Part shown: piece by piece, positions 2 through 19,747 of the stretch | Layout of the letters: every line of letters starts with the position of its first letter | Numbering within the stretch: position 1 is the stretch's first letter | NCBI GenBank assembly: GCA_035510255.1 | Contig: DATKHK010000030.1 | Location: 3,345-27,344 of the forward strand | Direction of reading: 5' to 3' | DNA: 24,000 nucleotides | DNA from: Candidatus Saccharimonadales bacterium | Lineage (GTDB): Bacteria; Patescibacteriota; Saccharimonadia; UBA4664; SCTI01 | The notes under the pieces: model-generated | What the model was told of the DNA's origin: nothing | Databases searched by the model: none | The model's input: the letters and a program-made list of their open reading frames with translations, nothing else | Translations under genes and position numbers: made by a program

Positions 2-472
2 ACCGATTTCGCCCTACAGCACGGGGCCGCTAAGGTTTACGCTGTGGATGTCGGCACCGCCCAACTGGCTTATAAACTGCGCCAAGATTCACGGGTTGCC
101 TCAATGGAGCGCACCGATATCCGCACCGCCGAGCTTCCGGAGCAGCCGGACATAGCGGTGATTGACGTCTCGTTTATCTCGCTTATCAAAATATTGCCCG
201 CGGTAGCCCGGCTACTTAAGCCGACCGCGCCAATTGTGGCCATGGCTAAGCCGCAGTTTGAAACCGATAAAGCTACCGCCGATCGCTACCGCGGAGTCAT
301 CCGCGACGAAAGCGTACGCCAGCGGATACTCCAATTATTTCACGCAAATATTAAAAAATCCTTTACTATCGTGGCCGCCGCCGATTCGGCGGTGACCGGT
401 GCCGAAGGCAACCGTGAGCGCTTCTATGTGCTGAAGCGGAACTCCACGACATCGTCGGGACGCATCACATAA
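2..472 (+). CDS. tlyA: TlyA-family rRNA 2'-O-methyltransferase (hemolysin A-like), 5'-truncated by the window edge
   Basis: The frame stays open from base 2 and reads TDFALQHGAAKVYAVDVGTAQLAYKLRQDSRV..MERTD.R... This matches the SAM-binding core typical of TlyA/FtsJ-like methyltransferases. Its 3' end overlaps the convergent ychF by 49 bp. Confidence 0.85.
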   Translation, partial: TDFALQHGAAKVYAVDVGTAQLAYKLRQDSRVASMERTDIRTAELPEQPDIAVIDVSFISLIKILPAVARLLKPTAPIVAMAKPQFETDKATADRYRGVIRDESVRQRILQLFHANIKKSFTIVAAADSAVTGAEGNRERFYVLKRNSTTSSGRIT

Positions 473-1491
473 TCCTTGCCCTCCAGTCGCGCCTTGCCGG
501 CGGCCCGGGCAGCGGGCAGCGAACCCGTGGCTACTAAGTCCTCGTAGCTCACCACCTCGGCGCGGATGAAGCCCTTTTGAAAATCGGTATGAATTACCCC
601 GGCGGCTTCGGGGGCTGTCGCGCCGGCCGGAATCGTCCAGGCTCGAACCTCCTTAGGCCCGGCGGTTAGGTATGATTGCAGCCCCAGCGTGTGCTGGCCG
701 ACCCGCACCAGTGCGTCCAGACCCGACTCATTCTGGCCCAGTTCGCGCAGCAGCTCAGCGCTTTCGGCTGGCGCCAGCTCGCTAAGCTCGGCCTCAATTT
801 TGGCGCATAAGATGATGGCCTCGGCCGGCGCCACTAGTTTAGCCAGCCGCTGTTTCAATTCGGCATTTCCTAGATCACCCTCGTCAACATTGAAGACGTA
901 AATGAAAGGCTTAACGGTTAGTAGCTGTAAATCGCCAATCAGCTCACTGTCGAATTTGGCCGCAAACAGGGTCTGTCCGCCGTCCAAAATCTGCCGGGCC
1001 TGGCTCAACGCGCTTGCAGCGGCCCTTTGCGCCGCGTCCTTGCCAATTTTACTTAGGCGCCGGTCAATCGTTTGGATGTCGGCTAGCATCAGCTCGGTGT
1101 TGATTGTCGCGATATCGTCCTCCGGATTCACCGCGCCATCAACATGCGTTACATTGGGGTCGCTAAACACCCGCACTACCTGGCAGATCGCATCACATTC
1201 GCGGATGTTGCTCAAAAACTGATTGCCAAGACCTTGGCCCTCGCTGGCACCGTGCACCAGTCCGGCAATGTCTACAAAGGTCACAGCGGCCGGTATTGTT
1301 TTAGGTGCTTTAGTGCCGTCGGCGTACAGCGCTGCCAGCTTATCCAGCCGCGCGTCGGGTACCGCCACAATACCGACGTTCGGCTCGATCGTAGCAAACG
1401 GATAGTTAGCCGCCAGCACATTTTTGCGCGTCAGCGCGTTAAACAGTGTCGATTTGCCGACGTTCGGCAGGCCAGCGATTGCGATTTTCAT
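424..1491 (-). CDS. ychF: Ribosome-binding ATPase YchF (Obg-family GTPase/ATPase)
   Basis: The N-terminus MKIAIAGLPNVGKSTLFNALT contains the G1 P-loop, followed by NYPFATIEPNVG and FVDIAGLV. The C-terminal TGS-like part reads VRAWTIPAGATAPEAAGVIHTDFQKGFIRAEV. The 355-aa length is typical. An SD-like AAGGGTGA sits before the ATG on the minus strand. Confidence 0.95.
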   Translation of the reverse strand: MKIAIAGLPNVGKSTLFNALTRKNVLAANYPFATIEPNVGIVAVPDARLDKLAALYADGTKAPKTIPAAVTFVDIAGLVHGASEGQGLGNQFLSNIRECDAICQVVRVFSDPNVTHVDGAVNPEDDIATINTELMLADIQTIDRRLSKIGKDAAQRAAASALSQARQILDGGQTLFAAKFDSELIGDLQLLTVKPFIYVFNVDEGDLGNAELKQRLAKLVAPAEAIILCAKIEAELSELAPAESAELLRELGQNESGLDALVRVGQHTLGLQSYLTAGPKEVRAWTIPAGATAPEAAGVIHTDFQKGFIRAEVVSYEDLVATGSLPAARAAGKARLEGKDYVMRPDDVVEFRFST

Positions 1492-3576: not shown

Positions 3577-4455
3577 GTGGCCAATAAATCTCTGGAGGCC
3601 GAGGCGACGGCTCGGAAACGCGGTCAAATGCAAGCAGCCGGCTGGACGGTCGGCGTGGTGGTGGTAATTATCGTATTTATTCTGCTGGCTAAACTGGTCT
3701 CTAATGGCAGCTCCGGCGGCGGCACGGCTAGCAGCTCCGGGACTTCACCGGCGCCGGCTTCGTTGGTGGCCAAGGTCACCTCGCTAGAGGCAAGTGTGTT
3801 CGCGGCGGTTGGGCAGGGGAGCGCTACCTCGCTGCCCAAGCCGATTTCCGCACCGGCCCTGACCCAAAACGGCAAACCGCAAATTGTCTACCTTGGGGCC
3901 GAGTACTGCCCATATTGTGCCACCGAGCGCTGGCCAATGGTCATTGCGCTTTCACGCTTCGGTAGCTTCTCGAATCTTCAAACCACCCATTCCTCTTCCT
4001 CCGATGTCTACCCCAGCACCCAAACCTTCTCTTTCCATGGCGCTAGCTATAGCAGCCCATACATTGCCTTTACCGGTGTTGAGACCTACAGCAATGTACC
4101 GCAAGGTTCCGGCTACGCGCCGCTGGATACACCAACCTCGGCCGAGCAAAGCTTGCTCAATACCTACGATGCCCCGCCGTATGTTTCTTCCAGCTCCTCC
4201 GGTGCGATCCCGTTTGTCGATTTTGGCGGCAAGTACTTGATTTCCGGCGCTTCCTATAGCCCGCAGGTCTTGCAAGGTAAATCGGCTGATCAAATTGCCA
4301 GCGCGCTCAGCGATCCCTCGACCGATATCAGCAAAGGCGCTGTTGGTACCGCCAATGCCATTACGGCTGCCATCTGTAAAATGACCAACGACCAGCCCGG
4401 CAAGGTCTGCGGCACGTCGGTAATCCAAGGGCTTGAGCAAAAGCTTGGCGGGTAG
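3577..4455 (+). CDS. DUF929-type membrane-anchored thioredoxin-like protein with a CPYC active site
   Basis: GTG start preceded by GCGAGGAA. The N-terminal TM helix is [20 protein letters not shown], followed by a Ser/Gly linker. The block [33 protein letters not shown] is characteristic of DUF929. Confidence 0.8.
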
Positions 4456-4900
4456 GGAGGTGCCATTGCCGCGTTGGCTGGTGCCGGCGGCACTGGTGAT
4501 TATCGCGCTGGGTATTGGCGACACGGTCTATCTCACGATTGCCCATTACACTACTCCGGTTCTTCTCAGCTGCCCGGATACGGGGATCATTAACTGCGCC
4601 AAGGTTACGACGAGTAGTTACTCAAAAATTCTCGGCATCCCAGTGGCACTACTTGGTTTGATTTTTTTCCTGGGCAACCTGCCATTGCACCTGCCAGCCG
4701 CCTGGCGCTCGCCGAGTGTTTTAGTCCGCCGTCTGCGGCTGGCTGCCAGCGCCAGTGGTATCCTCATGGTGTTTTGGCTGTTGTATGTTGAGCTATTTCG
4801 TCTAAATGCCATCTGCTTATACTGCAGTACCGCCCACGTGCTGACGCTGCTCTTATTTATTGTGACGGTGTTTGGCACGGTTCTTACCAGCCAAGGTTAA
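4433..4900 (+). CDS. Vitamin K epoxide reductase (VKOR) family membrane oxidoreductase
   Basis: The protein has multiple TM helices. The loop Cys pair is [14 protein letters not shown] and the active-site Cxx[10 protein letters not shown], lies in the last helix region. The start is uncertain: TTG 4433, or GTG 4460 / TTG 4466 just after GGGAGG (4454-4459). The gene abuts or overlaps the DUF929 stop codon. Confidence 0.85.
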
Positions 4901-4949
4901 TGCCGATAAAAAGCTGGCTTGCAAATTTTCGAGACTGAAACGCTATTGC

Positions 4950-4978
4950 TTGAAATTTTGGAATAACACTTCTACTAT
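4950..4978 (+). promoter_or_regulatory. Sigma70-like promoter of the RiPP operon
   Basis: TTGAAA (4950-4955), a 17-nt spacer, then TACTAT (4973-4978). SD AAGGAG lies at 5011-5016, six nt before ATG 5023. Confidence 0.55.
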
Positions 4979-5022
4979 TGCGTCAGTTCGTTGACAAAAC
5001 AGATACATGAAAGGAGAAGGTC

Positions 5023-7203
5023 ATGGACCTTACAGATTTTCCGCTTGTCGTGATGTATGGCTTTCGCGCGTCTGCGGAGCGCTATACCTTTTTGGGACGC
5101 CAAGGCCATATCGATATACATGAGCATAGCGACGCCCTTGAAAAAATTCTACGTCTCTGTAGTGGATTGGCTACACTTGCGCAAGTCTGCCAAGCCAGCG
5201 AAGTTGAACAGGGTCTCTGCCTGCAGCTCATTGATGTCTTGGAGCAGAACGGTATCGTGATTGATAGCCGAAAGCTTTACCAGGTGTTTCATCAGGATTC
5301 TGCTAATCCAATGCAGTTTGGATCCGGTATTACGACTACAGGCCTGGAAAGTCTAATGAATCGGGCTGAGCAACGGGGCGTTGTTTCGATAGATGGCCGG
5401 GAGCAGGTCGACCTGCCGATCTGCTCAAATCTATTGGCTGGCGTCGATCAGCGCATCACAACCCGTGCGTTCGCAGGCCCCCTTCCGAGCCTACAAGCGA
5501 TTTCTAACGTGTTGGCTAGTGCCTACGGAATTGGAAAAGCTCATTGCGTGCCGTCGGCAGGAGGGTTATACCCGTTTAGTCTCTATTTTGTTGTCCAAGC
5601 AGTAAATCAGGTTCTGTCTCAAGGTGTTTACTGTTACAACCACCGATCACATTCACTTAGCTATTGCGGTATGCGAGATCGGTATCAAGTACAGGTTGCA
5701 CTAGATTCACTAGATATGTCTAACGGAGCGCCAATGGTAGTTTGCCTAGTTGCTTCAATGGACATAGTCGCAACTAAGTATGCCAATCGTGGATACCGCT
5801 ACGCCCTGATTGAGGCCGGACATATTGCGCAAAACATTCAACTGTTTTGCAGTTCGGAAGATTTTGGGGTTATGGAGTACGGTGGATTCGATGATAATCG
5901 GCTAAAGAAACTACTGGGGCTGGCTGGGGTTAATCAAATGCCTCTGTTGGCTCTCGGCGTTGGTAGGGTAGCGCAAGGCGAGGAGTCGCTTGATGCCGTG
6001 AAGCAAGCCGAGTATCAAGGGCTGACCGATGTTCTGGCTGGCAAGAGCAGCTTGCTGTATGGGCTAGCGCCTATTAAGGTGAAGTCAGACGATGACCTCT
6101 CCTTTTATGGGATGGTAGCTGAGTCGGCGTCGCCAGCCAGCTCGAAGAAGCCGCAATACGCGTTTGGCAGTGGGTACACTCGTCTTGATGCCGCAATTCG
6201 GGCTATGGGCGAGTGTTTTGAGCGCCATATTGGCTCCCAATTTCAGCAAGCTAGTAGCACGAAATGCAAAGCCTCCGACCTAGATGCGCCATATCTGTCT
6301 CCCAAAGATCTCACTCCATATACACCACAGCAAATCAAGAGACTGGGGGACATCTCGGCTTTTGATCCAGGGGCAGAGATGGTGTGGCTGCCGGGCTGTC
6401 AGTATCCTACAAAGACCAAGGTCTACATAGCAGCCGAGAATGTCTACTATCCAATCAGGGAGAGGGATCTAGGCCGCAAACCTTGTCACTTTGGCGACTC
6501 ATCTGGGTTGGCCTGCCACCCTGAGGCCTCGGCTGCTGTTATCGGTGGGTTGCTGGAGCTCATTGAGCGCGATGCGTTGATGGTTCATTGGTATGGCAAG
6601 AAAGTACCGCCAAAAATCCCAAACAAGGATCTGACTCATCATATTCGTTCACGTCTTGATTACTGGAAAGCTAAGGGGAAGACGGTCGAGGTGCTCGACC
6701 TGACTCTCGACAGTGTTCCAGTGGCATTGGTAGTGATTTACGGTGTTGGTTATCCTTATTTTACTGCCGGAGCAGCTGCCGAATTCAGCATGGAAGCGGC
6801 TATAGATAAGGGATTTCGTGAGGCTGAGCTCATGCTGGCTAGTTGGAGTACCGAGGCACCAACTTCCATCTCTCCAAAAGATATCTCAAGCCCAGAAGAT
6901 CATGGAGCCTATTATTTTGAGGAGGTAAATTTCTCAAAGCTTGAATGGTTGATGACCGGAGAGTATGGAGCCAGCGGGGCCAGCCAATGTAGTGCAGAGG
7001 ATCTGTTCTTGCGGTTTCAACCTGTAGTGGTAGAATTGCCTCATCAGTATCCAGTCCAACTAAAGGTGGTACGTGTTCTTTCTCAATTCCTTCTGCCTAT
7101 AAACTTCGGGTACGCCCGTGAGCTGGTAGCGCATCTGCGTTTTCAGCAACTCGGAATATCCTGGACACAGCCATACCCTGCAGTACCTCATTTTTTTTCC
7201 TGA
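5023..7203 (+). CDS. Tri-domain RiPP maturase: PqqD-like RRE, SagB-type FMN dehydrogenase and YcaO cyclodehydratase
   Basis: Residues ~10-80 (YTFLGRQGHIDIHEHSDALEKILRLCSGLATLAQVC..QLIDVLEQNGIVI) resemble a PqqD/RRE winged helix. Residues ~85-320 carry SagB/ThcOx motifs: LYQVFHQDS, TTRAF, VPSAGGLYPFSLYFVV, GVYCYNHRSHSL and NRGYRYALIEAGHIAQNIQL..GGFDD. Residues ~380-726 carry YcaO motifs: GSGYTRLDAAIRAMGECFERH and SSGLACHPEASAAVIGGLLELIERDAL. The C-terminus ends in the Pro-rich QPYPAVPHFFS. Confidence 0.9.
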   Translation: MDLTDFPLVVMYGFRASAERYTFLGRQGHIDIHEHSDALEKILRLCSGLATLAQVCQASEVEQGLCLQLIDVLEQNGIVIDSRKLYQVFHQDSANPMQFGSGITTTGLESLMNRAEQRGVVSIDGREQVDLPICSNLLAGVDQRITTRAFAGPLPSLQAISNVLASAYGIGKAHCVPSAGGLYPFSLYFVVQAVNQVLSQGVYCYNHRSHSLSYCGMRDRYQVQVALDSLDMSNGAPMVVCLVASMDIVATKYANRGYRYALIEAGHIAQNIQLFCSSEDFGVMEYGGFDDNRLKKLLGLAGVNQMPLLALGVGRVAQGEESLDAVKQAEYQGLTDVLAGKSSLLYGLAPIKVKSDDDLSFYGMVAESASPASSKKPQYAFGSGYTRLDAAIRAMGECFERHIGSQFQQASSTKCKASDLDAPYLSPKDLTPYTPQQIKRLGDISAFDPGAEMVWLPGCQYPTKTKVYIAAENVYYPIRERDLGRKPCHFGDSSGLACHPEASAAVIGGLLELIERDALMVHWYGKKVPPKIPNKDLTHHIRSRLDYWKAKGKTVEVLDLTLDSVPVALVVIYGVGYPYFTAGAAAEFSMEAAIDKGFREAELMLASWSTEAPTSISPKDISSPEDHGAYYFEEVNFSKLEWLMTGEYGASGASQCSAEDLFLRFQPVVVELPHQYPVQLKVVRVLSQFLLPINFGYARELVAHLRFQQLGISWTQPYPAVPHFFS

Positions 7204-7228: not shown

Positions 7229-7408
7229 ATGCAGGCTCAAGACAGTATTAGGGTGAAGATTCGCCCATATGAGCACGCTCAACAGTCTGGCAGTGGCAGT
7301 AGCACAAGCGGCTGTGCTGGCAGCGGGAGCTGCGGCCATTCAGGTAACTCTCGAGGTGGGCCAACCACCCCTCTCGAGACAACCGATAGTGAGCATTCGG
7401 AGAGCTGA
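7229..7408 (+). CDS. Candidate azole-RiPP precursor peptide (59 aa), absent from the ORF track
   Basis: My translation is MQAQDSIRVKIRPYEHAQQSGSGSSTSGCAGSGSCGHSGNSRGGPTTPLETTDSEHSES*. The ORF starts 25 nt after the maturase stop on the same strand and sits upstream of the terminator. Residues 20-41 contain only S, G, T, C, A, H and N, with Cys29 and Cys35. The SD is weak (AAAGG, 13 nt upstream). Confidence 0.7.
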   Translation: MQAQDSIRVKIRPYEHAQQSGSGSSTSGCAGSGSCGHSGNSRGGPTTPLETTDSEHSES

Positions 7409-7492: not shown

Positions 7493-7526
7493 AAAAAGGT
7501 CTCGATATTCGAGGCCTTTCTTTTTT
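7493..7526. terminator. Bidirectional rho-independent terminator shared by the RiPP operon and the convergent metalloprotease gene
   Basis: AAAAA precedes the stem GGTCTCGA (7498-7505), loop TAT and stem TCGAGGCC (7509-7516). This gives 8 bp with one G-U pair. TTTCTTTTTT follows at 7517-7526. A/T tracts on both sides allow it to work in both orientations. Confidence 0.75.
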
Positions 7527-8166
7527 ACATAAAAACTTCAAGCAGCTTATCCGGCTCAATGGTAATGGAAGTCTTCAGGTCAAATTGCGGCAGGCTTTTC
7601 TTAGCGAGGGTATAGCCCAGAGAATACCCGATCCATTTACCATGCGGTCCGTTAAAAAACCATTGTGAATGATCATAGTCTTTTGAACCCCATTGCTTGC
7701 GTGCCTCATCCAGCGCCTCTACGGAAACATTCATCTCAGCCCATTTTGGTTTTGTGCCGCATCGAATCTCTTCGTAATAAGTTGCAAAACCTTCGCTTGT
7801 TAATGCTCCACCTAGCGTGCTGCCGTACCCCACAGTCTGCCACCGAGCCATGTGGTGCAGCTCGTGAGCAACCACTGCAATTAGCTCCTTTTGGGAAAGG
7901 TTTTTCCAGCTAGGGATCGCAATCATGGTTTCGGCGGGGAAGTAGGTATGGCCTCCTGGGTATTTACCCTCAATTGAAAGGGCTGGATTGTCGCGGATAT
8001 ATAGTATTTGCACGGGATTTTTAATGAAGCCTCTTAGTTTTGTAAACTCGTTTTCAACAATCCCCACCAGATCGCTGAAATCATAATCAGCTTTTTCATT
8101 ATTCAGTGCCACCAGACATAATGTCTTGCCGCTGACCTCGATTTTTCTTACAAAAAGTTTATCCAT
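7525..8166 (-). CDS. Putative Zn-metalloprotease (HExxH; DUF2268-like)
   Basis: The motif IAVVAHELHHMARW contains HELHH, with a downstream TSEGFATYYEE that could supply a third Zn ligand (Glu). No signal peptide is evident. The gene is convergent with the RiPP operon. Confidence 0.7.
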   Translation of the reverse strand: MDKLFVRKIEVSGKTLCLVALNNEKADYDFSDLVGIVENEFTKLRGFIKNPVQILYIRDNPALSIEGKYPGGHTYFPAETMIAIPSWKNLSQKELIAVVAHELHHMARWQTVGYGSTLGGALTSEGFATYYEEIRCGTKPKWAEMNVSVEALDEARKQWGSKDYDHSQWFFNGPHGKWIGYSLGYTLAKKSLPQFDLKTSITIEPDKLLEVFM

Positions 8167-8258
8167 ATCCTAAGTTTATACTGAATTCGGCTAGTCCGCA
8201 TTGTTGGCGGGTAAGACTACCCATACTTTGCGGCTTTCGTGAAAACCGGCCGAGAATA

Positions 8259-8267
8259 TGATACATT
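8259..8267 (+). promoter_or_regulatory. Extended -10-like element TGATACATT
   Basis: The element abuts ATG 8268. A second in-frame ATG at 8274 lies six nt past the hexamer, which fits a leaderless start. Confidence 0.35.
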
Positions 8268-8582
8268 ATGGTTATGTATAGAAAAGTCGCTGTAATTATG
8301 GGCAGCGTCATTGGGGCGGTAATCATTCTGGTGGCCGGCGGGACCTATGTTTTTCTAAAAACCACCTCTGGCAGCACTCCGAGTACCAGCGCCTCGGTCT
8401 CTAATCAATCGGCTAATTCGTCAGGTTCACAGGGCGGTAGCTCAACCGGTTCTTCTGGTAGTTCGACGCCGGGCTCCTCTAGCGGTGCATCTACGAGTAA
8501 CCAATCGATGTCCTCGCCCCATCCGCCACCCGCAGCGGCCACCGCATCTCATTCTCTTGCCACCCCGCTCATTAACTATTAA
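8268..8582 (+). CDS. Small membrane-anchored Ser/Gly/Thr-rich low-complexity protein
   Basis: The N-terminal TM helix is VAVIMGSVIGAVIILVAGGTYVF. About 60 aa of S/G/T-rich sequence follow, then a Pro/Ala tail. The start may be ATG 8274. I recognise no family. Confidence 0.55.
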   Translation: MVMYRKVAVIMGSVIGAVIILVAGGTYVFLKTTSGSTPSTSASVSNQSANSSGSQGGSSTGSSGSSTPGSSSGASTSNQSMSSPHPPPAAATASHSLATPLINY

Positions 8583-8770
8583 GCTAAGCGGCGATCTACA
8601 AAATAATTATATTGTAAAGTCAATAGAAAAAGTATTTACAATAATTCACAAATAGTTTATAACAAAGTTAAGCAGGCAGCGCTATAGCTAGCACTGGCTG
8701 TAGTACCCACAGGAGGCTTCGGCCTCACGACCCGGCCAGTACGCCGGCAGATGAAAGGAAGGTGAGCGCC

Positions 8771-9280
8771 ATGCGCGCGCTCAAGGATCGAGCCGGTAAA
8801 CCCGCAGAGAGGCTGGCGCTTGTTCTCTGCGGTGCTCTGGCTACGGCGCTCCTGATTGGCTTCCACGTGGAGGCCAAGACAGGCTCGCCAGTAAAGGCAG
8901 TCGCGGCTTCGGCCTCCTGCCAGTCGGACTTTCAGGGCGTTCCGTGTAAGGGGCCGATTCAGAGCCTCTACGCTTACGCCGGAGAAGGTAGTGGCGACAC
9001 CACCTATATTAAAGCTAAGGCAGGGAAGCAGAAAGTAGTTGGGGAACGGCTTGAAACCAATCCGCTCCCCAGGAACTACAGAGTGACGCAGCGTACCTTC
9101 ACCTGGCATTCACGCTCAAACATCGAAATCGTGGCTGTCTACGTGATACATAGGCCACTACGAGGCCACCCGACCTACCAAAAACTATCTACCGGCCGGC
9201 ATAGCGGCCACGCGACGTTGACGTTTGTGGGTGGCGGGACCCCGCCGCTTCTGCTCTTGCAAGGTCGGCATGGCCACTAA
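8771..9280 (+). CDS. Hypothetical small secreted protein (uncertain; the locus could instead be a structured RNA)
   Basis: ATG 8771 follows GGAAGGTGA. The N-terminus MRALKDRAGKPAERLALVLCGALATALLIGFHVEA looks like a signal peptide. The C-terminal third has odd composition and rare codons. The opposite strand is also open (8657-9109). TTTACA-17 nt-TATAAC at about 8635-8663 could be its promoter. Confidence 0.35.
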   Translation: MRALKDRAGKPAERLALVLCGALATALLIGFHVEAKTGSPVKAVAASASCQSDFQGVPCKGPIQSLYAYAGEGSGDTTYIKAKAGKQKVVGERLETNPLPRNYRVTQRTFTWHSRSNIEIVAVYVIHRPLRGHPTYQKLSTGRHSGHATLTFVGGGTPPLLLLQGRHGH

Positions 9281-9284
9281 GGTA

Positions 9285-9316
9285 GGGTGCCTCCCGCTTC
9301 CGAGCGGGAGGCACCC
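9285..9316 (+). terminator. Perfect 14-bp GC-rich hairpin after the 8771-9280 locus
   Basis: GGGTGCCTCCCGCT, loop TCCG, then AGCGGGAGGCACCC. The downstream T tract is weak (CACTTATTTCATCTC). Confidence 0.55.
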
Positions 9317-9410
9317 ATCTCCGCACTTATTTCATCTCATCGAGATGGGTCTTGCTCAATCAGCTCAAAATGGTTAAGCTTGACGTAAGTACTAACTGTG
9401 AGAAGGTTGC

Positions 9411-12400
9411 TTGCGTTTCAAAAGTATTGTTGCAATTGCTGTTGGAGTCAGCCTAGTTGTATTCGCTCCTGCTCTTCAGCGAGTGGGTTCACGGCTGCTC
9501 GCCCACGTTCCAGCCGCCTACGCGGCAAGTAAGGAAGACCCCCTGGGGGCAGGTAGCGACAGCGGCAGTGCACGTGATGACGCGGGTGGGCTGAGCGTCA
9601 CGGCAACCGACCCAAATGGCAATCCTGTGGGGGGGAGTGGTGCACCTATCTACCGAGGTGAGACGATTACTGTAACTCTGAGCTATACGGTTGCCCATCC
9701 CAGCGGCAGTACCTGGGATGCCTGGATGAACTTCGACAACCTTAGCCTCGACGGATGCTCTGACCCCACAAACGCTGGTACCTGGGGAGCGGGCTGTCTA
9801 GAGAATCAGTCAGGGTCGTCAACCTCGCAAGAGCTAGACGATGCTTTCGATACCAATGGCGGCGACAATGGGAATGTCGAGCAGAACGACAACTGCCCCT
9901 CATTTTATGACAACAGCGACTCTCCCTATGCCGATACTTCGCAGGAAACGAATGGCACAACACCTTTATTTGGCTTAGACTTCCCCTGGTCGGGAGGGTC
10001 TGGCACGGACGGCCACTCAACCTGTGGAACGGAGGGATGGGCGGCGGTATGGCATGGTGTGCATATGGATACCGTTGGCCAAAAAAACTATAGTGTAACC
10101 TACCACGTCAATCCTGACTTTGGGGCGGCGAACCAACAGCTCTGCGTCTCTGGCGATATCACACTGGGAGACGTCCAGGGTCTCTCGAACAACTCTGGCG
10201 ACCTCTACTACCGCACCAACGCCAACTCCCTTTGCCTTACCGTCAACGTACCGACAACCATCTCCGGTAACGTCCAATCCGATCCGTACGCTTCCACTGG
10301 CAAGAAATTTGGCAGCCAGACCAACATCGTTTCGGTAAGTGCCAACTGCCAGTACAATGACATTAATTCGGGTGATGGTGGCGGATATGTTTCCACTGAC
10401 GGAAGTGGAGCCTATAGCTTTGGCTGGTTCCAGGGCCAGCCGTTTTGTATAGGCCCGAACACTGAAGGTCCAAACGCGGCCAGTGCCTATACGTGGGTCT
10501 ATGACGGCACGACCTATATTAATGTCCAGCCTCCGAGTACATATTCTGGTGCTTCTGGGTTAGCCAATGATCCGCCAAACGGCAGTAATCCCAACACGTG
10601 GTCCACCTGGACCGATGCTCAGAGCTGTGGTCCCGGCGACCCCGATCCTACACACTGTGGCGGCTACAATATCTACTGGTTGGCTGGGGGTAACGCGCCC
10701 AATATAACCAAGACCGAGGTCTCACCGGGCAACGGCGCCAATCTGACACCTGGCGAAGCCGTAACCTACTCTGTCACTCTCGATAACCCCTATGACTACA
10801 ATATCAATTACGGAGGGGGCAACTCTGTGGGTATGGATGACTATGTCCCTAATAATATCGACCCCACGACGACCGGTGGGCCGAGTTATAGCATTGGTGG
10901 TAGCCCCGACCCGACCGGTAGCGTTCCGGGTGGGTGGTCGGTATCGGGTGTCATACCCTGCTACAGCATTAGTTATGGGCTTACTGGTCACCAGAACCTC
11001 GCGGGAGCTGGTTGTACCGCGCCCAATAGCGGCGTGGAAGGGGTAGCGTTTACCATATTGCCGGCTTATAGTTCCGTAACGATGACCTGGACGGGTACGG
11101 TTAAAACTGCGGCTGACATTGGGGTATACCCAGAGTATTTCCAGAGCGCTGCCGATCAAGCCCACGCCCAAGACCCTAACTGTAATGCCGCTTATGGCGA
11201 TGCGACCGGCCTCATGCCCTATTGCGAAGACTTTACCAATGGGCTGGAAGGCGTCTATAACGTGGCCGGGTATTTGGACCAAAACGGCAACTGGACGCCC
11301 TCGAATTCAACCTACAATCCGATCCCGGCAGCGGTTGATTGCCTGAGTAAGTACGCTGTTGGGCTGCAGCAGGATGACAGCGACACGGCGACCGTTAACA
11401 GCTGTAGTAGCGGCACACAGCCCCAATACTATGCCTATGTTAGTGGGCGCAATGACTATAACGGGCTAACTAATGGTGGCGCTATAGAAATCCAGGTCAC
11501 GCCCGATCCGAACCAAGGCCCCTTGTTCTACCAGCTTTACGACCAATCCTCAACGCAAGGGCTGGATCCCAACATTACCGTTCAGCCGGTATCCTCGCCG
11601 CTAATGACGAACGGAGTGACCGCCGGCTGTAGCAGCGGCTGTGGCGGCGGCGCCGGGCCGGTGGTTGGCTGGGCTGGCGGTAACGGCGAAGAGCTGTATG
11701 GGAGTGGGGCCGAGGGCAGCTATACAATCCCGATAACCTTAGCCAATAGCACCACTGCTATCGGTGGCAGAAATGAGAATACCTCTGATTTATGCATAAT
11801 TCAGTACTGGGCCAGCGGCCATCCGCTTAACTGTAATCCGGCCACCGAAGCCGGGGGCACTAGCGATCCCTCTGTGCCAATTTACTTCACCCATTACGAT
11901 GACCTGTCACCCTATCTGACGACCAGCGGCGGCGACGTCCACGCCGGCGGCTGCAACCAAGACACCACTACCGGCCAGTGTGCTACCCAGGCCAGCAGTG
12001 TCTGTCCATCTAGCGACCTCGGTAACAACGCGCCAGAGTTCGATAATACGGTCTTTAATAATAATCCCGACTCTAACACCATTGGCCAATACTTGGTGAC
12101 GGCTGGTGATAACCTCTCTGGCAATCCGTATGCCGGTACTTCGGCGGGTGTGCTGAGTGGCTCGAGTAACCTTTCGACAGCCAACGATACCGGTGTGATT
12201 ATTCGGCCCAACCTGTGTGGCGCGGCCACAGCCTACGCCGCTAAGCAGGGCGGGACGATTATCGCCGGTGCAGGTGTACTTAACGCTGGTGGCCAAAATG
12301 GGCCCAGCGGCAGCTTCCGCGACGATCCCGATATTTCCAGCGACCACTCCGGGTTGCCAGCCATGGAGTCCAGCCCCGACTCGAAGGTTATTACCGCCGA

Positions 12401-12965
12401 TCCACCGAGCGGCACCTACACGCTGGGTAGCTCGGACCCCAACAATCCAGCTACCATCGAGATCAACCATCGTTGGACGCTCTACGTTACCGGCAACCTC
12501 TACATCAACGCCAATATTAGTTATGGCTCCAACAATCCTACCGGAACCGGACTTAACGCTGAGCAGAACCATCCCTCGTTCGGGGTGATCGCCACCGGCA
12601 ACATCTATATCGGTAAAGACGTTACCAACCTTAGCGGCTTTTACACCTCGGCGGGCGTGATCAACACCTGCGCCGACGTTAACGGCAGTAGCTTGTCTTA
12701 CCAGGTTGGCGGCGGCGGCCCTGGCCCGGGCTCCGGTTCATATACGACGACCGACTGTGCTGACGAGTTGACGGTGCAAGGCATTATGTACGCCGACACC
12801 TTCCGCTTTAACCGCACCACTGGCTACAACACCACCACGCCGACCGTTTCCGAGAGCATTGACTATGACAATCGGCTATACACCGCCACGCCGCCAGCCT
12901 TCAACGACCTTGTAGGCTCCAGCCTGCTTTCTAAGTACTTAATAGAGCCTCTGCCAAGGTATTAA
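9411..12965 (+). CDS. Giant secreted Gly/Asn/Ser/Thr-rich, Cys-containing surface protein (candidate adhesin) with a DUF11-like repeat-domain segment
   Basis: TTG start after GAGAAGG. The signal peptide is MRFKSIVAIAVGVSLVVFAPAL...AAYA. The segment ITKTEVSPGNGANLTPGEAVTYSVTLDNP resembles the DUF11 'conserved repeat domain' signature. The C-terminal region has beta-helix-like periodicity (LYVTGNLYINANISYG...GVIATGNIYIGKDV). There is no LPXTG motif. Confidence 0.8.
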   Translation: MRFKSIVAIAVGVSLVVFAPALQRVGSRLLAHVPAAYAASKEDPLGAGSDSGSARDDAGGLSVTATDPNGNPVGGSGAPIYRGETITVTLSYTVAHPSGSTWDAWMNFDNLSLDGCSDPTNAGTWGAGCLENQSGSSTSQELDDAFDTNGGDNGNVEQNDNCPSFYDNSDSPYADTSQETNGTTPLFGLDFPWSGGSGTDGHSTCGTEGWAAVWHGVHMDTVGQKNYSVTYHVNPDFGAANQQLCVSGDITLGDVQGLSNNSGDLYYRTNANSLCLTVNVPTTISGNVQSDPYASTGKKFGSQTNIVSVSANCQYNDINSGDGGGYVSTDGSGAYSFGWFQGQPFCIGPNTEGPNAASAYTWVYDGTTYINVQPPSTYSGASGLANDPPNGSNPNTWSTWTDAQSCGPGDPDPTHCGGYNIYWLAGGNAPNITKTEVSPGNGANLTPGEAVTYSVTLDNPYDYNINYGGGNSVGMDDYVPNNIDPTTTGGPSYSIGGSPDPTGSVPGGWSVSGVIPCYSISYGLTGHQNLAGAGCTAPNSGVEGVAFTILPAYSSVTMTWTGTVKTAADIGVYPEYFQSAADQAHAQDPNCNAAYGDATGLMPYCEDFTNGLEGVYNVAGYLDQNGNWTPSNSTYNPIPAAVDCLSKYAVGLQQDDSDTATVNSCSSGTQPQYYAYVSGRNDYNGLTNGGAIEIQVTPDPNQGPLFYQLYDQSSTQGLDPNITVQPVSSPLMTNGVTAGCSSGCGGGAGPVVGWAGGNGEELYGSGAEGSYTIPITLANSTTAIGGRNENTSDLCIIQYWASGHPLNCNPATEAGGTSDPSVPIYFTHYDDLSPYLTTSGGDVHAGGCNQDTTTGQCATQASSVCPSSDLGNNAPEFDNTVFNNNPDSNTIGQYLVTAGDNLSGNPYAGTSAGVLSGSSNLSTANDTGVIIRPNLCGAATAYAAKQGGTIIAGAGVLNAGGQNGPSGSFRDDPDISSDHSGLPAMESSPDSKVITADPPSGTYTLGSSDPNNPATIEINHRWTLYVTGNLYINANISYGSNNPTGTGLNAEQNHPSFGVIATGNIYIGKDVTNLSGFYTSAGVINTCADVNGSSLSYQVGGGGPGPGSGSYTTTDCADELTVQGIMYADTFRFNRTTGYNTTTPTVSESIDYDNRLYTATPPAFNDLVGSSLLSKYLIEPLPRY

Positions 12966-13011: not shown

Positions 13012-14052
13012 ATGGGACTATTTTCAAAAGAGGTGGATTACTTTGGCGTTGATATCGGAGCCGGCACTATCCGATTGGTTCAGCTAAAGAAAGGCGCCCA
13101 AAAGCCAATACTACAAACCTATGGGTCGGTGCCGGTTGACCCGAGCTGGGTGCAAGCTGATTCGCCGGCCGATATTCCGCGTATCGCCGGTGTGCTCAAG
13201 CAGCTCGTCAAGGACACGAAGGTTTCGACCAAGTATGTCATCGCCGGACTACCTTCTTCAAAGGTTTTTTCCAGCGTGATTTCGACCCCCAAGCTCAGTC
13301 ATCAGGAGCTGGGGAAGGCGATTATGTTGCAAGCCGACCAGTACATTCCGATGGCGGTTAAGGATGTGAAGCTGGATTGGGTGGTGATTGGACCCGGTAA
13401 GACCGAAAAAGAGCAGCAGGTCCTGGTGGTGGCAGCGCCCAACACCGTGACCGAGCGCCAGGTTAGTATTTATGAACAGGCCGGTTTGGAGTTGGTAGCA
13501 CTGGAGCCAAACGCGGTAGCACTGGCCCGCGCAGTAGTGCCGCCGGGAGACCTAGCGGTGCTAGTACTTGATATTGGTAGCCTGTCGGCTGACATCACCA
13601 TTGTTCAAGGCAATATACCCAAGCTGTTGCGGTCGATTAATATCGGTGGCGTTTCATTGGTGCGGGCGGCCTCCCAAGGCCTCGGCCTTGATGAAGCCCA
13701 GGCCGACCAGTTTGTGCGCAAATTTGGCCTGACCCAAACCAAACTTGAGGGCCAGGTTTACAAAGCCCTTAAGCCGGTGCTTGACCAATTGGTTGAGGAG
13801 ATTGATAAGTCGGTAAAGTTTTTCCAGAGCCAGTACCCCACAATCAAGTTCGAGAAACTGGTACTTACTGGCGGTACAACCGGCATGCCGGAGCTGCCAA
13901 CCTACCTCTCTACGGCGGTGGGCTTACCGGTTGAGATTGCCAACGCCTGGGCCAAGGTCGGGTACGCCGCCACCCTTCAAGATTCGCTCATGGGCAATGC
14001 TACTGAGTTTGGCGTGGCTGTCGGTTTGGCGGAGCGAGACCTATTGGTATGA
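13012..14052 (+). CDS. pilM: Type IV pilus assembly protein PilM (actin-like ATPase fold)
   Basis: The N-terminus reads YFGVDIGAGTIRLVQLKK. Downstream are VLDIGSLSADITIV and the C-terminal LVLTGGTTGMPELPTYLS. Length and position before the pilN/O-like genes fit PilM. Confidence 0.9.
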   Translation: MGLFSKEVDYFGVDIGAGTIRLVQLKKGAQKPILQTYGSVPVDPSWVQADSPADIPRIAGVLKQLVKDTKVSTKYVIAGLPSSKVFSSVISTPKLSHQELGKAIMLQADQYIPMAVKDVKLDWVVIGPGKTEKEQQVLVVAAPNTVTERQVSIYEQAGLELVALEPNAVALARAVVPPGDLAVLVLDIGSLSADITIVQGNIPKLLRSINIGGVSLVRAASQGLGLDEAQADQFVRKFGLTQTKLEGQVYKALKPVLDQLVEEIDKSVKFFQSQYPTIKFEKLVLTGGTTGMPELPTYLSTAVGLPVEIANAWAKVGYAATLQDSLMGNATEFGVAVGLAERDLLV

Positions 14053-14636
14053 ACGTACGGCTCAACCTTGCCCCGGAAGTTTATCAGGCTAGCCAGCGGG
14101 CTAAGCAGCGTAAACAGCTGGCTACCAGCATTGGCGTGCTGGTGTCTGCAGTAAGCGTAGGCATAGTGGTGGTGAGCCTGATAATCCTTGGCGGCCAAAA
14201 AGTCTTACTGGCAGCTCTTAATAACTCGGTAAAACAGCGCCAAAACAAGGTATCCCAGTATGCCGAGCTAGGAACCGCCGCTACCGCCCAGCAGCACTTG
14301 CAGGCCTGGTCTCAGTTGGCTGGCACCCAGGGTCATTTCAGTAATTTCTTTCAGATTCTCCAAGATTTCGCACCGCAAGGAGTAGCTGCTACCCAGGTGA
14401 GTGTAGATAACACCAATACCATTACGATGACCGGTGACGCCAACTCATACGACCTGGTAACCAAGTTTGCCAAAGCTCTAGAGGCTAGCAATGTTCAGGT
14501 CGGTCCGTCGCACGCTGCCACCAATCAGCCATACTTTACCAATGTGCAACTCAGCAACGTGAGCAATAATGGTAGTGATGGTATTGGCTTCCAGTTAACC
14601 ACCACCATGTCGAGCGAGGTGACCAGTGGCCAGTAA
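14049..14636 (+). CDS. pilN: PilN-like type IV pilus alignment protein
   Basis: The ATG overlaps the pilM stop (ATGA). The N-terminal LNLAPE resembles the INLLP motif. A basic stretch, a single TM helix (IGVLVSAVSVGIVVVSLIIL) and a coiled region follow. Confidence 0.7.
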   Translation: MNVRLNLAPEVYQASQRAKQRKQLATSIGVLVSAVSVGIVVVSLIILGGQKVLLAALNNSVKQRQNKVSQYAELGTAATAQQHLQAWSQLAGTQGHFSNFFQILQDFAPQGVAATQVSVDNTNTITMTGDANSYDLVTKFAKALEASNVQVGPSHAATNQPYFTNVQLSNVSNNGSDGIGFQLTTTMSSEVTSGQ

Positions 14637-15318
14637 AGCTGCACCCGCGAAGAAGCCGGCTGCCACCACTCCGCCCTCTCAGGCAGTGGTGAAGCGCGAT
14701 AGTAAGGCCAATAATTACATCGCGGTGATTGCGGTCGTTACCGTACTCGTGGTGTTGGTGTGTGGGTTAGCTGCCAAATCTCTCCTAGGATCAATAATCC
14801 TTGATGGCAAGCTGATTGTGCATACCAACCAAGCTAAAACCGATTTGGATACTAAGCTACGGAACATACCTATTTTGATTAGCAACTATAACGCGTTAGG
14901 AAGCAAGCAACAGCTCATCGCCGATGCCCTGCCAAATGACCCTGATTTTCCGGCGCTGATTAGCATTGCTCAGGCCATGAGTGCCGACTCAGGGCTAACC
15001 CTCAAGTCGATCTCGCCTGATAACAGTGCTTCTAATACCGCTGTCAACCCAGGTGCCGTTGGTGCCGCTGTCACTCCGGGAGCCACTACATCTGTATCGA
15101 GCACCAAGCCAACTCCCTACTTGTTCGACGTAGAGGTGGCTGGCACCTATCCCCAAGTGGTGCACTTCTTTGATGACGTGCAGCTTTCGGCCCGGCCGAT
15201 GAAGGTAGTTAACACTGATTTTAACGGCGATGGCTCGGCGCTACAGGTCTCAATCATACTCCAGACCTATTACCAGGGCGCGGCCAATACCAATGACAAG
15301 ACGGAGACGCTCAAATGA
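14626..15318 (+). CDS. pilO: PilO-like type IV pilus alignment protein
   Basis: The GTG start overlaps the pilN end. There is a single TM helix (YIAVIAVVTVLVVLVCGLAA) and a coiled segment. LIADALPNDPDFPALISIAQAMSADSGLTLKSISP resembles the PilO core. Confidence 0.65.
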   Translation: MASKAAPAKKPAATTPPSQAVVKRDSKANNYIAVIAVVTVLVVLVCGLAAKSLLGSIILDGKLIVHTNQAKTDLDTKLRNIPILISNYNALGSKQQLIADALPNDPDFPALISIAQAMSADSGLTLKSISPDNSASNTAVNPGAVGAAVTPGATTSVSSTKPTPYLFDVEVAGTYPQVVHFFDDVQLSARPMKVVNTDFNGDGSALQVSIILQTYYQGAANTNDKTETLK

Positions 15319-15587
15319 AAAGTAAAGAAATCGTTGAGCTAGTAGTAGCAGTATTGATTCTAGCGATTGCTGGATATGTTGTGTACAAGATAGTAGTGCC
15401 ATCGTCCCCAAGCAGTTCCGGGGCTAGTCATACAGTTACCTACGTGCAGGTGACACCGGTCGATCCCAATTTTGACTCTAACAGCCTTAACGAACTAGGG
15501 GATAGCAGTAAGGTGCGTGACTTCTATAGCCCGCCAGATCTTAGTAGTGGGCTCAATAACAGTCAGCCCTTTGGCCCCCTTCAGTAG
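15315..15587 (+). CDS. Small single-pass membrane protein, pilus-cluster associated, unknown family
   Basis: The ATG overlaps the pilO stop (ATGA). The TM helix is IVELVVAVLILAIAGYVVYKIVV, followed by about 60 periplasmic or extracellular residues. Confidence 0.5.
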   Translation: MKSKEIVELVVAVLILAIAGYVVYKIVVPSSPSSSGASHTVTYVQVTPVDPNFDSNSLNELGDSSKVRDFYSPPDLSSGLNNSQPFGPLQ

Positions 15588-15615
15588 AATCAGAGCGACT
15601 ATAGCGTACCGCTTA

Positions 15616-15624
15616 TGCTAAAAT
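15616..15624 (+). promoter_or_regulatory. Extended -10-like element TGCTAAAAT upstream of pilB
   Basis: This is a TGnTAAAAT match, followed by AGAAGGAG (15632-15639) and ATG 15658. Confidence 0.4.
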
Positions 15625-15657
15625 AGGCATAAGAAGGAGTACCCTGAGACTATACCC

Positions 15658-17415
15658 ATGCTGAGCGTAGAGAGTGAAAAACAGATAGAGCAGTTGCTGC
15701 TTGAGCAAAAGATCATTCAGGTTAATCAGCTTGATGAGTTAAGGGCTCGGGCAGCTCAACAAGGTGAGCCGTTACTAAGCATTATCCAGCAAGCCGGCTT
15801 AATCGATGATGAGGCTATGGCCAAGGTTTCAGCTCAGGCTAGTGGCGTGCCGTATGCCAATCTTTCCGAGGTAACGGTGCCGCCAGAGCTGCTGGCGATG
15901 CTACCGAAAGAACTGGCCGAAAACTACCGGGCTGTCGTTTTCGGCAAGACCGGCGGCCGGATTGCGGTAGCCATGGTCGATCCCACCAATGTGCAGGCGG
16001 TGGACTTTCTGGCGCACAAGATTGATAAACCGATCGCAACCTTCATGGCCTCCCAAACTGCCATTGAGCATGTGCTCCTCCAGTACTCGGCCGAAATCGC
16101 CGCTGACATTAAGCAGGCGATCCAGAGCACTGCCGATGAGCGCACCCCCGGCGAGGCCAAAAAGGTACAGAACCTGGTACAGGATGCGCCGATCACCCGG
16201 GCTCTTAATACCATCTTGGAGTACGCTGCTAACGCACGGGCTTCCGACATCCATATCGAGCCGCGTGAAAAGGATCTGCGTATCCGTTTTCGGATTGACG
16301 GGGTACTGCTGGAGGCGATGCGTCTACCAAAATCGATTGAGCCGGCCCTGATTTCGCGGATTAAAATTCTCTCCAACCTAAAAATCGATGAACATCGCAT
16401 TCCCCAGGATGGCCAGTTTGTGGTGCGGGTGGGCAAAGCTGAGATTGACCTGCGTATCGCCATATCGCCAGTGGTCTGGGGAGAACAGGTGGTGATCCGG
16501 TTGCTTAATAAAGATAACTCGCTGTTGACCCTAGAAAAGCTCGGCTTTCATGGGCGGGCTTTCCGGGCTATCCTGGCTGGCGTCCATCGTCCGCACGGTA
16601 TGACACTGGCGACCGGCCCGACCGGTTCCGGTAAGTCCACCACGCTGTATGCACTGCTCCAGGCCATTAAGAGTGTCCAGATCAACATTGTTACTCTTGA
16701 GGATCCGGTGGAGTATAAGATGGAGGGTGTTAACCAGATCCAGGTTAACACCGACGTCGGGCTAACCTTTGCCAGCGGTTTGCGCTCGATCCTGCGTCAG
16801 GACCCCAACGTTATTATGGTTGGGGAGATCCGCGACCAGGAGACCGGTAACCTGGCCGTCCAGAGCGCGTTGACCGGCCATGTGGTGCTCTCTACCATCC
16901 ATACCAACTCGGCTGCCGGTGTTTTGCCCCGGCTCTTGGATATGCAGGTAGAGCCGTTCCTGGTGGCTTCTACGGTCAACGCTGTCATTGGCCAGCGCTT
17001 GGTCCGTCGCGTCTGTGATAACTGCAAGCAACAACGGCCGGCAACCGAGGCAGAGATCGAATCCATTCATCATACGCTGGAAGCTTTACTGCCTAAATCA
17101 GAGGGTGACATCAAGGTGAAAGAAGATTTAGGGTACGACTTCTTGCCATTAGCCGGTCAAAACGCTTATACTTTATATGAAGGCAAAGGTTGCAAGAAAT
17201 GCAAGGAGGGATACAAGGGGCGCGTGGGAATTTATGAGGTTTTTTCAATGAGCGAGGGAATGGAGCATCTTTTGAGCAAGAAGGCGACTACCTCTGAGGT
17301 GCAAACTCAAGCCCAGGGTGATGGCATGATAACCATGAAACAGGATGGATACCTAAAGGCGCTGAACGGGGTGACCACGCTCACCGAGGTAGCTCGAGTG
17401 GCGTCGGATACATAA
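15658..17415 (+). CDS. pilB: Type IV pilus extension ATPase PilB (GspE family)
   Basis: The protein has an N-terminal T2SSE_N-like domain, Walker A GPTGSGKST, Walker B/Asp box IMVGEIRD and His box GHVVLSTIHTN. The tetra-Cys Zn motif is CDNCK...CKKCKEGYKGR. Confidence 0.95.
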   Translation: MLSVESEKQIEQLLLEQKIIQVNQLDELRARAAQQGEPLLSIIQQAGLIDDEAMAKVSAQASGVPYANLSEVTVPPELLAMLPKELAENYRAVVFGKTGGRIAVAMVDPTNVQAVDFLAHKIDKPIATFMASQTAIEHVLLQYSAEIAADIKQAIQSTADERTPGEAKKVQNLVQDAPITRALNTILEYAANARASDIHIEPREKDLRIRFRIDGVLLEAMRLPKSIEPALISRIKILSNLKIDEHRIPQDGQFVVRVGKAEIDLRIAISPVVWGEQVVIRLLNKDNSLLTLEKLGFHGRAFRAILAGVHRPHGMTLATGPTGSGKSTTLYALLQAIKSVQINIVTLEDPVEYKMEGVNQIQVNTDVGLTFASGLRSILRQDPNVIMVGEIRDQETGNLAVQSALTGHVVLSTIHTNSAAGVLPRLLDMQVEPFLVASTVNAVIGQRLVRRVCDNCKQQRPATEAEIESIHHTLEALLPKSEGDIKVKEDLGYDFLPLAGQNAYTLYEGKGCKKCKEGYKGRVGIYEVFSMSEGMEHLLSKKATTSEVQTQAQGDGMITMKQDGYLKALNGVTTLTEVARVASDT

Positions 17416-17424
17416 GGAATTATT

Positions 17425-19739: not shown

Positions 19740-19747
19740 TAAAATGC

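Follow-up and report, generated by a model that had tools for sequence, protein, structure and literature searches.

Azoline-forming YcaO cyclodehydratases are assisted by an E1-like or Ocin-ThiF protein, which supplies the recognition element for peptides that are synthesized ribosomally and modified post-translationally (the RiPP recognition element, RRE) and raises catalytic activity by orders of magnitude (PMC4603692). The question of whether such a partner can be dispensed with is raised by a 24,000-nucleotide stretch of DNA from a Candidatus Saccharimonadales bacterium (assembly GCA_035510255.1, contig DATKHK010000030.1, positions 3,345 to 27,344; hereafter the window), in which the gene at 5023-7203 on the forward strand encodes an RRE, a SagB-type dehydrogenase and a YcaO domain in one chain. 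We consider it probable that the product of this gene is an azole synthetase in a single polypeptide, belonging to a linear azol(in)e-containing peptide (LAP) pathway, with the RRE in cis replacing the E1-like or Ocin-ThiF partner.

The open reading frame (ORF) encodes 726 amino acids, beginning MDLTDFPLVV and ending WTQPYPAVPHFFS. Its translation agreed with the preliminary description of this DNA in its coordinates, in the N-terminal stretch quoted there (YTFLGRQGHIDIHEHSDALEKILRLCSGLATLAQVCQASEVEQGLCLQLIDVLEQNGIVI) and in the final residues QPYPAVPHFFS. Pfam assigned Nitroreductase (PF00881, 5e-16) to residues 142-315 and YcaO (PF02624, 2.7e-38) to residues 382-644, and the NCBIfam model for SagB family dehydrogenases (TIGR03605) was matched at 98.6 bits, above its cutoff of 78.4. 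When the full protein was modeled by AlphaFold2 with 14 homologues, the mean predicted local distance difference test (pLDDT) score was 82.9 and residues 10-80 were confident. The best Foldseek matches to the full model were, in order, LynD/TruD (E ~1e-22 to 5e-23), MusD, archaeal thioamide YcaOs, McbD, and E. coli YcaO. The union of RRE, dehydrogenase and YcaO in one chain, as described previously, is confirmed. The features of the gene are as follows.

5010..5020 (+), Shine-Dalgarno sequence AAAGGAGAAGG of the maturase gene, read from the sequence; strong, 3 nucleotides before the ATG
5023..7203 (+), maturase gene, RRE - SagB-type dehydrogenase - YcaO fusion of 726 amino acids (ORF, Pfam/NCBIfam, AlphaFold2, full-length homologues)
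5041..5265 (+), RRE, residues 7-81, a winged helix of four short strands, three helices and a wing strand (AlphaFold2, Foldseek, profile matches)
5263..5292 (+), post-RRE segment D81-S-R-x-L-Y-x-x-F-H90, conserved (D81 in 86%, F89 in 79%, H90 in 88%), possibly a hinge to the dehydrogenase domain
5299..5427 (+), linker, residues 93-135 (pLDDT 35-61; mean pairwise identity 20%)
5428..5982 (+), SagB-type flavin mononucleotide (FMN)-dependent azoline dehydrogenase, residues 136-320 (TIGR03605, PF00881; motifs R144-x-T-x-R148 and PSAGGLYP)
5776..5781 (+), catalytic Lys-Tyr pair K252-Y253, aligned with McbC K201-Y202 by BLASTP and invariant in the 14-sequence alignment
6157..7200 (+), YcaO cyclodehydratase domain, residues ~379-726 (PF02624, TIGR03604; Foldseek matches to LynD, TruD, MusD, archaeal YcaOs and McbD)
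7186..7200 (+), C-terminal tail P722-H723-F724-F725-S726, the register equivalent of the canonical PHPFP (PxPxP)

The N-terminal domain is confirmed as an RRE. It had been likened, at residues ~10-80, to PqqD-type elements on the basis of a pattern of strands followed by helices, and AlphaFold2 reproduced this pattern for the isolated domain (residues 1-92, 75-sequence alignment, pLDDT 95.4): strands at 7-9, 12-17, 20-25, and 28-33, helices at 36-43, 52-59, and 63-75, and a last strand at 79-81. When this model was compared with the Protein Data Bank (PDB) by Foldseek, solved RREs filled nearly all of the top 20 places (template modeling [TM] score 0.5-0.69, root-mean-square deviation 2.1-4.4 Å), namely those of TruD (E 1.4e-3), PbtF, LynD, ThcOx, TigE, McbB domain 1, TbiB1, MccB, and CteB; the PbtF RRE with bound peptide superimposed at a TM score of 0.69 and 2.3 Å. 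The fold is therefore superimposable on solved RREs, whose hallmark is a three-stranded sheet followed by three helices (winged helix-turn-helix). The domain profile also matched RRE segments in register in LynD (residues 39-82, E 0.005), MusD, TruD, PqqD (0.054), PbtF, and PaaA, with E-values that are individually marginal and consistent with one another. Pfam scans of 75 family members taken singly matched HTH_47 in 21, PqqD in 11 (best 5.9e-4), TrmB in 11, and the LanB N-terminus (Lant_dehydr_N) in two. The 'ILxxCNG' turn of the RRE is conserved in the family, with G48 present in 98%.

The central domain has the nitroreductase fold and the sequence hallmarks of a SagB-type azoline dehydrogenase. 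BLASTP against McbC from the E. coli microcin B17 plasmid paired TKYANRGYRYALIEAGHIAQN of the window protein with FKYRYRGYRMALMETGSMYQN of McbC, which places K252-Y253 on the pair K201-Y202 whose catalytic role is described for McbC (PMC6395948). R148, P177, S178, G180, K252, and Y253 are all invariant dehydrogenase columns in the 14-sequence alignment. Sequence matches in the PDB were 3eo7, BmdC, and McbC, and the Foldseek/PDB matches included ThcOx.

The C-terminal domain is a YcaO with Glu/Arg motifs of the ATP/Mg-binding type. The invariant motifs of this type in the same alignment are E397-x-x-E400-R401, S493-x-G495, and E512-x-x-E515-R516-D517, and the ExxER and ELxERD motifs are found in McbD as well. 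In all 14 full-length members, the best YcaO model was TIGR03604 (best E 3.8e-45), against 9.1e-22 for the McrA-thioamidation model; judged by such model scores, the YcaO half is closest to the azoline-forming SagD type.

An E1-like domain was looked for in the same 14 full-length members with TIGR03882, TIGR03603, and the ThiF/MoeB models, and none matched, while the canonical CD fusions in five of the retrieved loci (L033, L037, L048, L049, and L061), used as a positive control, matched TIGR03882. Neighborhoods were inspected over 6-8 kb on either side in ~27 homologous loci, and no E1-like, Ocin-ThiF or TfuA domain was detected there. No ThiF/E1-like or TfuA gene was present in the whole 24-kb window, and none lay within 7-8 kb in the seven homologue contexts annotated with Pfam. 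All-versus-all BLAST of ORFs of at least 110 amino acids within 6 kb in 23 loci identified DUF2268 as the sole co-conserved family (13 loci); the next, an ABC exporter, occurred in four. With the RRE profile, no separate RRE protein was detected in the flanks of the 23 loci, apart from a paralogous enzyme in one of them (L050). The earlier view that the protein has no E1-like partner domain thus held for all 14 full-length members scanned, and it extends to partner genes in the window and in the homologue contexts examined.

Directly downstream of the maturase gene lie a candidate substrate and a candidate leader peptidase.

7229..7408 (+), precursor peptide gene, an ORF of 59 amino acids (MQAQDSIRVKIRPYEHAQQSGSGSSTSGCAGSGSCGHSGNSRGGPTTPLETTDSEHSES) starting 25 nucleotides past the maturase stop
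7247..7270 (+), candidate leader recognition motif I7-R-V-K-I-R-P-Y14, alternating hydrophobic and basic residues of beta-strand type, putatively bound by the RRE
7286..7351 (+), predicted core, residues 20-41 (SGSGSSTSGCAGSGSCGHSGNS), Gly/Ser/Cys-rich, whose two Cys and many Ser/Thr would be the sites of heterocyclization; boundaries putative
7495..7529 (+), between the precursor and protease genes, terminator-like hairpin (7495-7519) with an 11-bp stem and a T-run, by consensus match only
7525..8166 (-), DUF2268 zinc metalloprotease with HELHH (PF10026, 5.7e-19), convergent, candidate leader peptidase

The predicted core resembles that of McbA, and similar cores occur in homologues. Leaders in the homologous loci share an alternation of hydrophobic and charged residues: IRVKIRPY in the window corresponds to IKVRIKPY (L005), AKVRIRPY (L007), LKVTTKPH (L004), and FKVTRKPY (L023), and further small ORFs beside the enzyme carry LTVKVKKR, LKVTVSEY, LQIRVTERR, and LKIRVQSES. 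These adjacent ORFs have Gly/Ser/Cys-rich cores in common, some of them extreme (e.g., GGGSGGGGSCGGASCGSGCGGGCGGGGGSCGGGSGCNGGGGGGCGGGC). Precursor-like ORFs adjoin the enzyme in ~18 of the 23 loci by eye and in 15 by a strict composition filter, under which their density was 0.49 per kb beside the enzyme and 0.076 per kb elsewhere in the same loci (6.5-fold). DUF2268 was annotated in five of the seven Pfam-annotated homologue contexts. The family thus keeps a trio of enzyme, short precursor and DUF2268 protease with no other co-conserved modifying enzyme, and the gene content of precursor, YcaO and dehydrogenase without a macrocyclase is that of a LAP cluster.

Some precursors and proteases depart from the common pattern. 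Residues 42-59 of the window precursor (7351-7408) form an acidic, Thr/Ser/Pro-rich extension of 18 residues (RGGPTTPLETTDSEHSES) past the Gly/Ser/Cys-rich core, unlike most homologous precursors, which stop within a few residues of the core; the extension could serve as a follower sequence or as another element for recognition or cleavage. In two Saccharibacteria homologues (L012, 8082-8276, and L028, 3675-3902), the cores are extremely Gly/Cys-rich (e.g., GGGSHCGGGSGGGNCGSGGSGCAGGSCGSGCGGGSCGSGCSK) and come closer to those of microcin B17 or heterocycloanthracin than the window's core does. In L005 (10341-11039) and L007, the loci whose enzymes and leaders are closest to those of the window, the neighboring protease was not detected as DUF2268; the homologous ORFs there encode a protein of ~230 amino acids with an HExxH-like motif (IIHELCHNF), which may be a divergent or replaced leader peptidase.

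The fusion is shared by a large family. A word-indexed search retrieved 13 full-length relatives at ~30% identity, and a repeat with their alignment added none, which would have made the family very rare. This was rejected after an exhaustive profile search of 1.84 billion representatives, which gave at least 150 matches, nearly all listed at 650-780 amino acids and matched end to end. By local hmmsearch, the RRE was present in 144 of 159 representatives; the other 15 are nearly all short and are probably fragments. The family thus comprises at least 144 representatives at 50% identity, and because they carry the same N-terminal domain, the fusion architecture is no chance feature. In data with one genome per species, full-length matches came mostly from Patescibacteria (Saccharibacteria/Saccharimonadales, Nanosyncoccus, Yanofskybacteria, and Magasanikiibacteriota), with scattered matches in Mycolicibacterium, Cupriavidus, Bdellovibrionales, and others. 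On chromosome 2 of Cupriavidus sp. H19C3 (L050), two RRE-bearing maturase-like ORFs lie side by side at 4538-6628 and 7660-9927, the second encoding 755 amino acids with an N-terminal match to the RRE profile (E 1.8e-9); this arrangement points to the enzyme having been duplicated in tandem in a proteobacterium that is in culture.

The C-terminus was compared with the PxPxP motif of azoline-forming YcaOs using two published accounts (PMC6395948 and PMC12338566), the other YcaO ORFs in the fetched loci, and McbD. The preliminary description had pointed to a Pro-rich motif, PYPAVP, at the end of the protein. The tail is indeed in register with PHPFP; however, PYPAVP is not the conserved element, and the upstream YPAV is kept in only about half of the family. 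What is conserved is the last five residues, P-H-[FY]-[FL]-[AS]. Among 126 family representatives, position -9 is [YF], -8 is P in 48%, -7 is [SA], -6 is variable, -5 is P in 96%, -3 is F/Y in 80% and P in 5%, -2 is F/L in 94%, and -1 is A/S in 87% and P in 9%; His occupies position -4 in 126 of 133 full-length representatives. The last 16 residues were modeled with pLDDT 85-91 in the full AlphaFold2 model, and a profile of the last ~65 residues matched no solved YcaO by sequence. In the fetched loci, 18 of 32 other YcaO ORFs end in PHP(F/I/M)x, typically PHPFP, and seven of the 32 have no PHP motif and end like NPxxMFL. The two of these seven that were scanned (L049 and L061) carry the E1-like domain TIGR03882, and the PHPFP-type tail is therefore common but not defining. 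McbD ends in KMVPFP, in which P394 and the terminal P396 matter and the terminal carboxylate has been proposed as the general base (PMC6395948). Divergent SagB-YcaO fusions with the same RRE in a Reyranella sp. (L016, 5452-7770) and a metagenome-assembled genome of Betaproteobacteria (L020, 2869-5496) end in FPHPFG and FPHPFA, intermediate between the canonical PHPFP and the PHFFA of the window's family.

Together, these features can be arranged into a working model of the pathway. The N-terminal RRE (residues 7-81) would bind the beta-strand leader motif IRVKIRPY of the 59-residue peptide, with the leader strand lying alongside RRE strand β3 as in the LynD and McbB complexes. The Gly/Ser/Cys-rich core, thereby tethered, would be cyclodehydrated at Cys/Ser/Thr to azolines by the YcaO domain in an ATP-dependent reaction, and the azolines would be oxidized to thiazoles and oxazoles by the central FMN dehydrogenase through K252-Y253, after which the DUF2268 zinc protease may cut off the leader. 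The in-cis RRE would take over the leader-binding role of the absent E1-like or Ocin-ThiF partner. Nitroreductase folds are obligate dimers, and the dehydrogenase may therefore act as a scaffold; the SagB dimer would probably fill the structural role of the E1-like domain, much as the McbC dimer centers McbBCD. That the RRE serves the YcaO in cis, with no partner needed, is plausible. We regard as evenly balanced the fuller proposal of a self-sufficient azole synthetase, in which the RRE on a dimeric SagB replaces the partner for both leader binding and YcaO activation, the PH[FY][FL][AS] tail with its terminal Ala/Ser carboxylate serves the active site, and the family's products are azole peptides like microcin B17, made chiefly by Saccharibacteria and other Patescibacteria.

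Several points weigh against the reading of the gene as a single-polypeptide azole synthetase. As to the chemistry, the YcaO half could instead install a thioamide or amidine, or act as a peptidase as MusD does, with the nitroreductase domain in another role. The TIGR03604 score of the protein (124 bits) is below the curated cutoff of 219 bits for SagD-type cyclodehydratases, and when the family profile was compared with solved YcaOs, the thioamide-forming MJ1094 of M. jannaschii ranked highest (91.8 bits), followed by MusD (74.7), LynD (72.1), and McbD (18.8). Sequence affinity by itself therefore cannot fix the chemistry. The tail is not a PxPxP ending in proline: relative to PHPFP, PHFFS retains its first Pro, His, and Phe and has the second and third Pro replaced, the third being the terminal Pro whose carboxylate is the proposed general base in McbD. 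As the scores against solved structures are not decisive, the azoline assignment leans on the hidden Markov model family scores, the fused azoline oxidase, and the precursor cores. These argue for azoles: TIGR03604 outscores the thioamidation model in every member, the fused dehydrogenase is of the SagB azoline type with its Lys-Tyr pair intact, and Cys/Ser-rich microcin-B17-like cores adjoin the enzyme in most loci. Moreover, no TfuA gene, which would mark a TfuA-dependent thioamide YcaO, lies adjacent in the window or in the seven annotated contexts, and the tail retains P-H-x-F in register with PHPFP. We judge the thioamide, amidine or peptidase alternative to be quite improbable. The possibility that the 59-residue ORF is not the substrate, that the enzyme modifies a protein or peptide encoded elsewhere, and that the neighboring Gly/Ser/Cys-rich ORFs are due to chance draws on the crude composition filter by which they were found and on the eight of 23 loci with no same-strand match at its threshold. 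Against it stand their enrichment beside the enzyme, a leader motif common to distant loci, and the position of the window ORF, 25 nucleotides past the enzyme stop and followed by a terminator-like hairpin; we give it hardly any weight.

An alternative on the role of the RRE holds it to be vestigial or of use in oxidation only; the YcaO half would then still require an E1-like or Ocin-ThiF-like partner, or a further RRE protein, from elsewhere in the genome. RRE-Finder detected fourteen MIBiG cases of RREs fused to SagB-type oxidases, and these were suggested to be vestigial in cyanobactin, LAP, and thiopeptide clusters (PMC7470986). In the family studied here, the RRE is the least conserved folded domain, with a mean pairwise identity of 23% where the catalytic domains reach 33-34%; such divergence is compatible with an RRE that co-evolves with leaders that vary, and is no proof of function. 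Residues 1-135 of the window protein had no Pfam or NCBIfam match as a single sequence (no Pfam match at E ≤ 1), and the same held when residues 1-100 were scanned singly; it took family-level scans and structure prediction to resolve the domain. The view of the homologues covers 6-8 kb per side, together with the 24-kb window, and a partner encoded outside these flanks is possible. On the other hand, neither the window nor the seven further annotated contexts hold a ThiF, E1-like or Ocin-ThiF gene, the 23 loci share no second co-conserved gene family, and the only other RRE-profile ORF in their flanks is the paralogous enzyme of the Cupriavidus chromosome. The RRE has been retained, with a confident fold, in 144 of 159 representatives. 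Most of the named hosts in the genome scan are Patescibacteria, whose genomes are small, which also speaks against a partner kept elsewhere. We therefore hold this alternative to be unlikely and prefer the reading of an azole synthetase with its RRE acting in cis. The analysis itself shows what the domains are, which catalytic motifs they carry, that the gene trio is conserved, and that no partner is encoded nearby; binding of the leader by this RRE, partner-independence, the chemistry, and the role of the protease are inferred.

The window's family carries its only RRE on the oxidase half of a protein that fuses oxidase and YcaO, and the enzyme is therefore a direct test of whether such RREs function and whether the E1-like domain is dispensable; the family offers a clean and abundant test case. 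If self-sufficient, one protein of 726 amino acids that binds a short leader, cyclizes and oxidizes would offer a practical way to install thiazoles and oxazoles in peptides. That the family is concentrated in Patescibacteria points to an azole peptide in which these bacteria invest and which may be an antibiotic or a factor in host interaction.

The rest of the window encodes FtsJ, YchF, NUDIX, DUF929/VKOR, a protein of 1184 amino acids without a domain match, and a type IV pilus operon. Genes for an FtsJ-like methyltransferase and for YchF border the maturase region both in the window (44-1491) and in the homologous locus L001 (15423-18178). Just upstream of the maturase gene, a thioredoxin-like DUF929 gene (3577-4455, +) overlaps a VKOR gene (4433-4900, +) by 23 nucleotides; they are presumably a disulfide-bond-forming pair, and the pair is not co-conserved with the enzyme in other loci. 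In an ORF-poor, GC-rich stretch, an ORF at 8771-9322 (+) has an ATG at 8771, the Shine-Dalgarno sequence GAAAGGAAGG, and a hydrophobic, signal-peptide-like N-terminus, and the stretch is closed by a strong terminator-type hairpin at 9283-9322; it is best explained as encoding a hypothetical secreted protein. A structured RNA at 8.6-9.3 kb was considered and rejected, as there was no Rfam or tRNA match and the stretch holds this plausible ORF with its own signals. The ORF of 1184 codons (9411-12965, +, TTG start) encodes a Gly/Ser/Thr/Asn-rich protein with a signal-like N-terminus and no Pfam match; it lies directly upstream of pilM (13012), and its product may be surface or pilus associated. 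A complete type IV pilus gene set follows at 13012-23887 (+), with PilM, PilN, PilO, PilB-like and PilT-like ATPases, PilC, pilin, and prepilin peptidase, and also a protein of 710 amino acids with a prepilin N-methylation motif and another pilin-like gene.

Among known systems, McbBCD of E. coli is alike in predicted chemistry, in its very similar Gly/Ser/Cys-rich core, in the Lys-Tyr pair and the YcaO, and in the RRE fold (McbB domain 1). It differs in consisting of three proteins in a B4C2D2 octamer with the RRE on the E1-like McbB (PMC6395948), whereas the window enzyme is one chain with the RRE on the dehydrogenase; the tails are VPFP and PHFFS, respectively, and the window cluster includes a leader protease (DUF2268). 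LynD, TruD, and PatD (RRE-E1-like-YcaO) likewise carry an N-terminal RRE and a C-terminal YcaO in one chain, and LynD/TruD were the best Foldseek matches both for the full model and for the RRE. Their middle domain is E1-like, while that of the window protein is a SagB-type FMN dehydrogenase, and the window protein should therefore also oxidize.

An RRE placed N-terminal to a SagB-type dehydrogenase is known from ThcOx, a cyanobactin oxidase bearing two RREs (PMC6395948), and from the trifolitoxin cluster, where the only RREs are on the SagB-type TfxB and TfxC and the YcaO TfxE has no partner (bioRxiv 10.64898/2025.12.02.691738; PMC4603692). In these systems the YcaO is separate, and for ThcOx, whose RREs have been regarded as possibly vestigial (PMC7470986), a canonical RRE-E1-YcaO heterocyclase is also present; in the window, the YcaO is fused and the cluster has no other RRE. 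The SagB-only homologues that we retrieved gave no match to the RRE profile of the window's family. Stand-alone YcaOs of the bottromycin BotC/BotCD type act without an E1-like, ThiF-like, TfuA or any other partner (PMC7136475); the window enzyme has in common with them the absence of an E1-like, ThiF-like or TfuA partner, and differs from them in the RRE in the same chain and the fused oxidase.

As to gene content and hosts, Sharrar et al. (2020, mBio) described 93 candidate-phyla genomes that hold LAP clusters in which a YcaO and a nitroreductase are accompanied by a peptidase and a precursor (PMC7298704). By their description, these clusters resemble that of the window, including the adjacent precursor, but have YcaO and nitroreductase as adjacent genes; in the parts of that account available to us, the RRE, a fusion, and the missing E1-like partner are not discussed. 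In the literature searched, whose coverage was incomplete, we found no description of an RRE-SagB-YcaO fusion or of a YcaO linked with DUF2268. The novelty implied in the preliminary description is nevertheless lessened by the RRE-bearing SagB-type proteins ThcOx and TfxB/TfxC and by the candidate-phyla LAP clusters (PMC6395948, PMC7470986, PMC7298704). In the terms of these systems, the window enzyme would be a LAP azole synthetase with fused B and D that carries its RRE on B and lacks C/F, and its components, its cluster type, and its hosts all have precedents.

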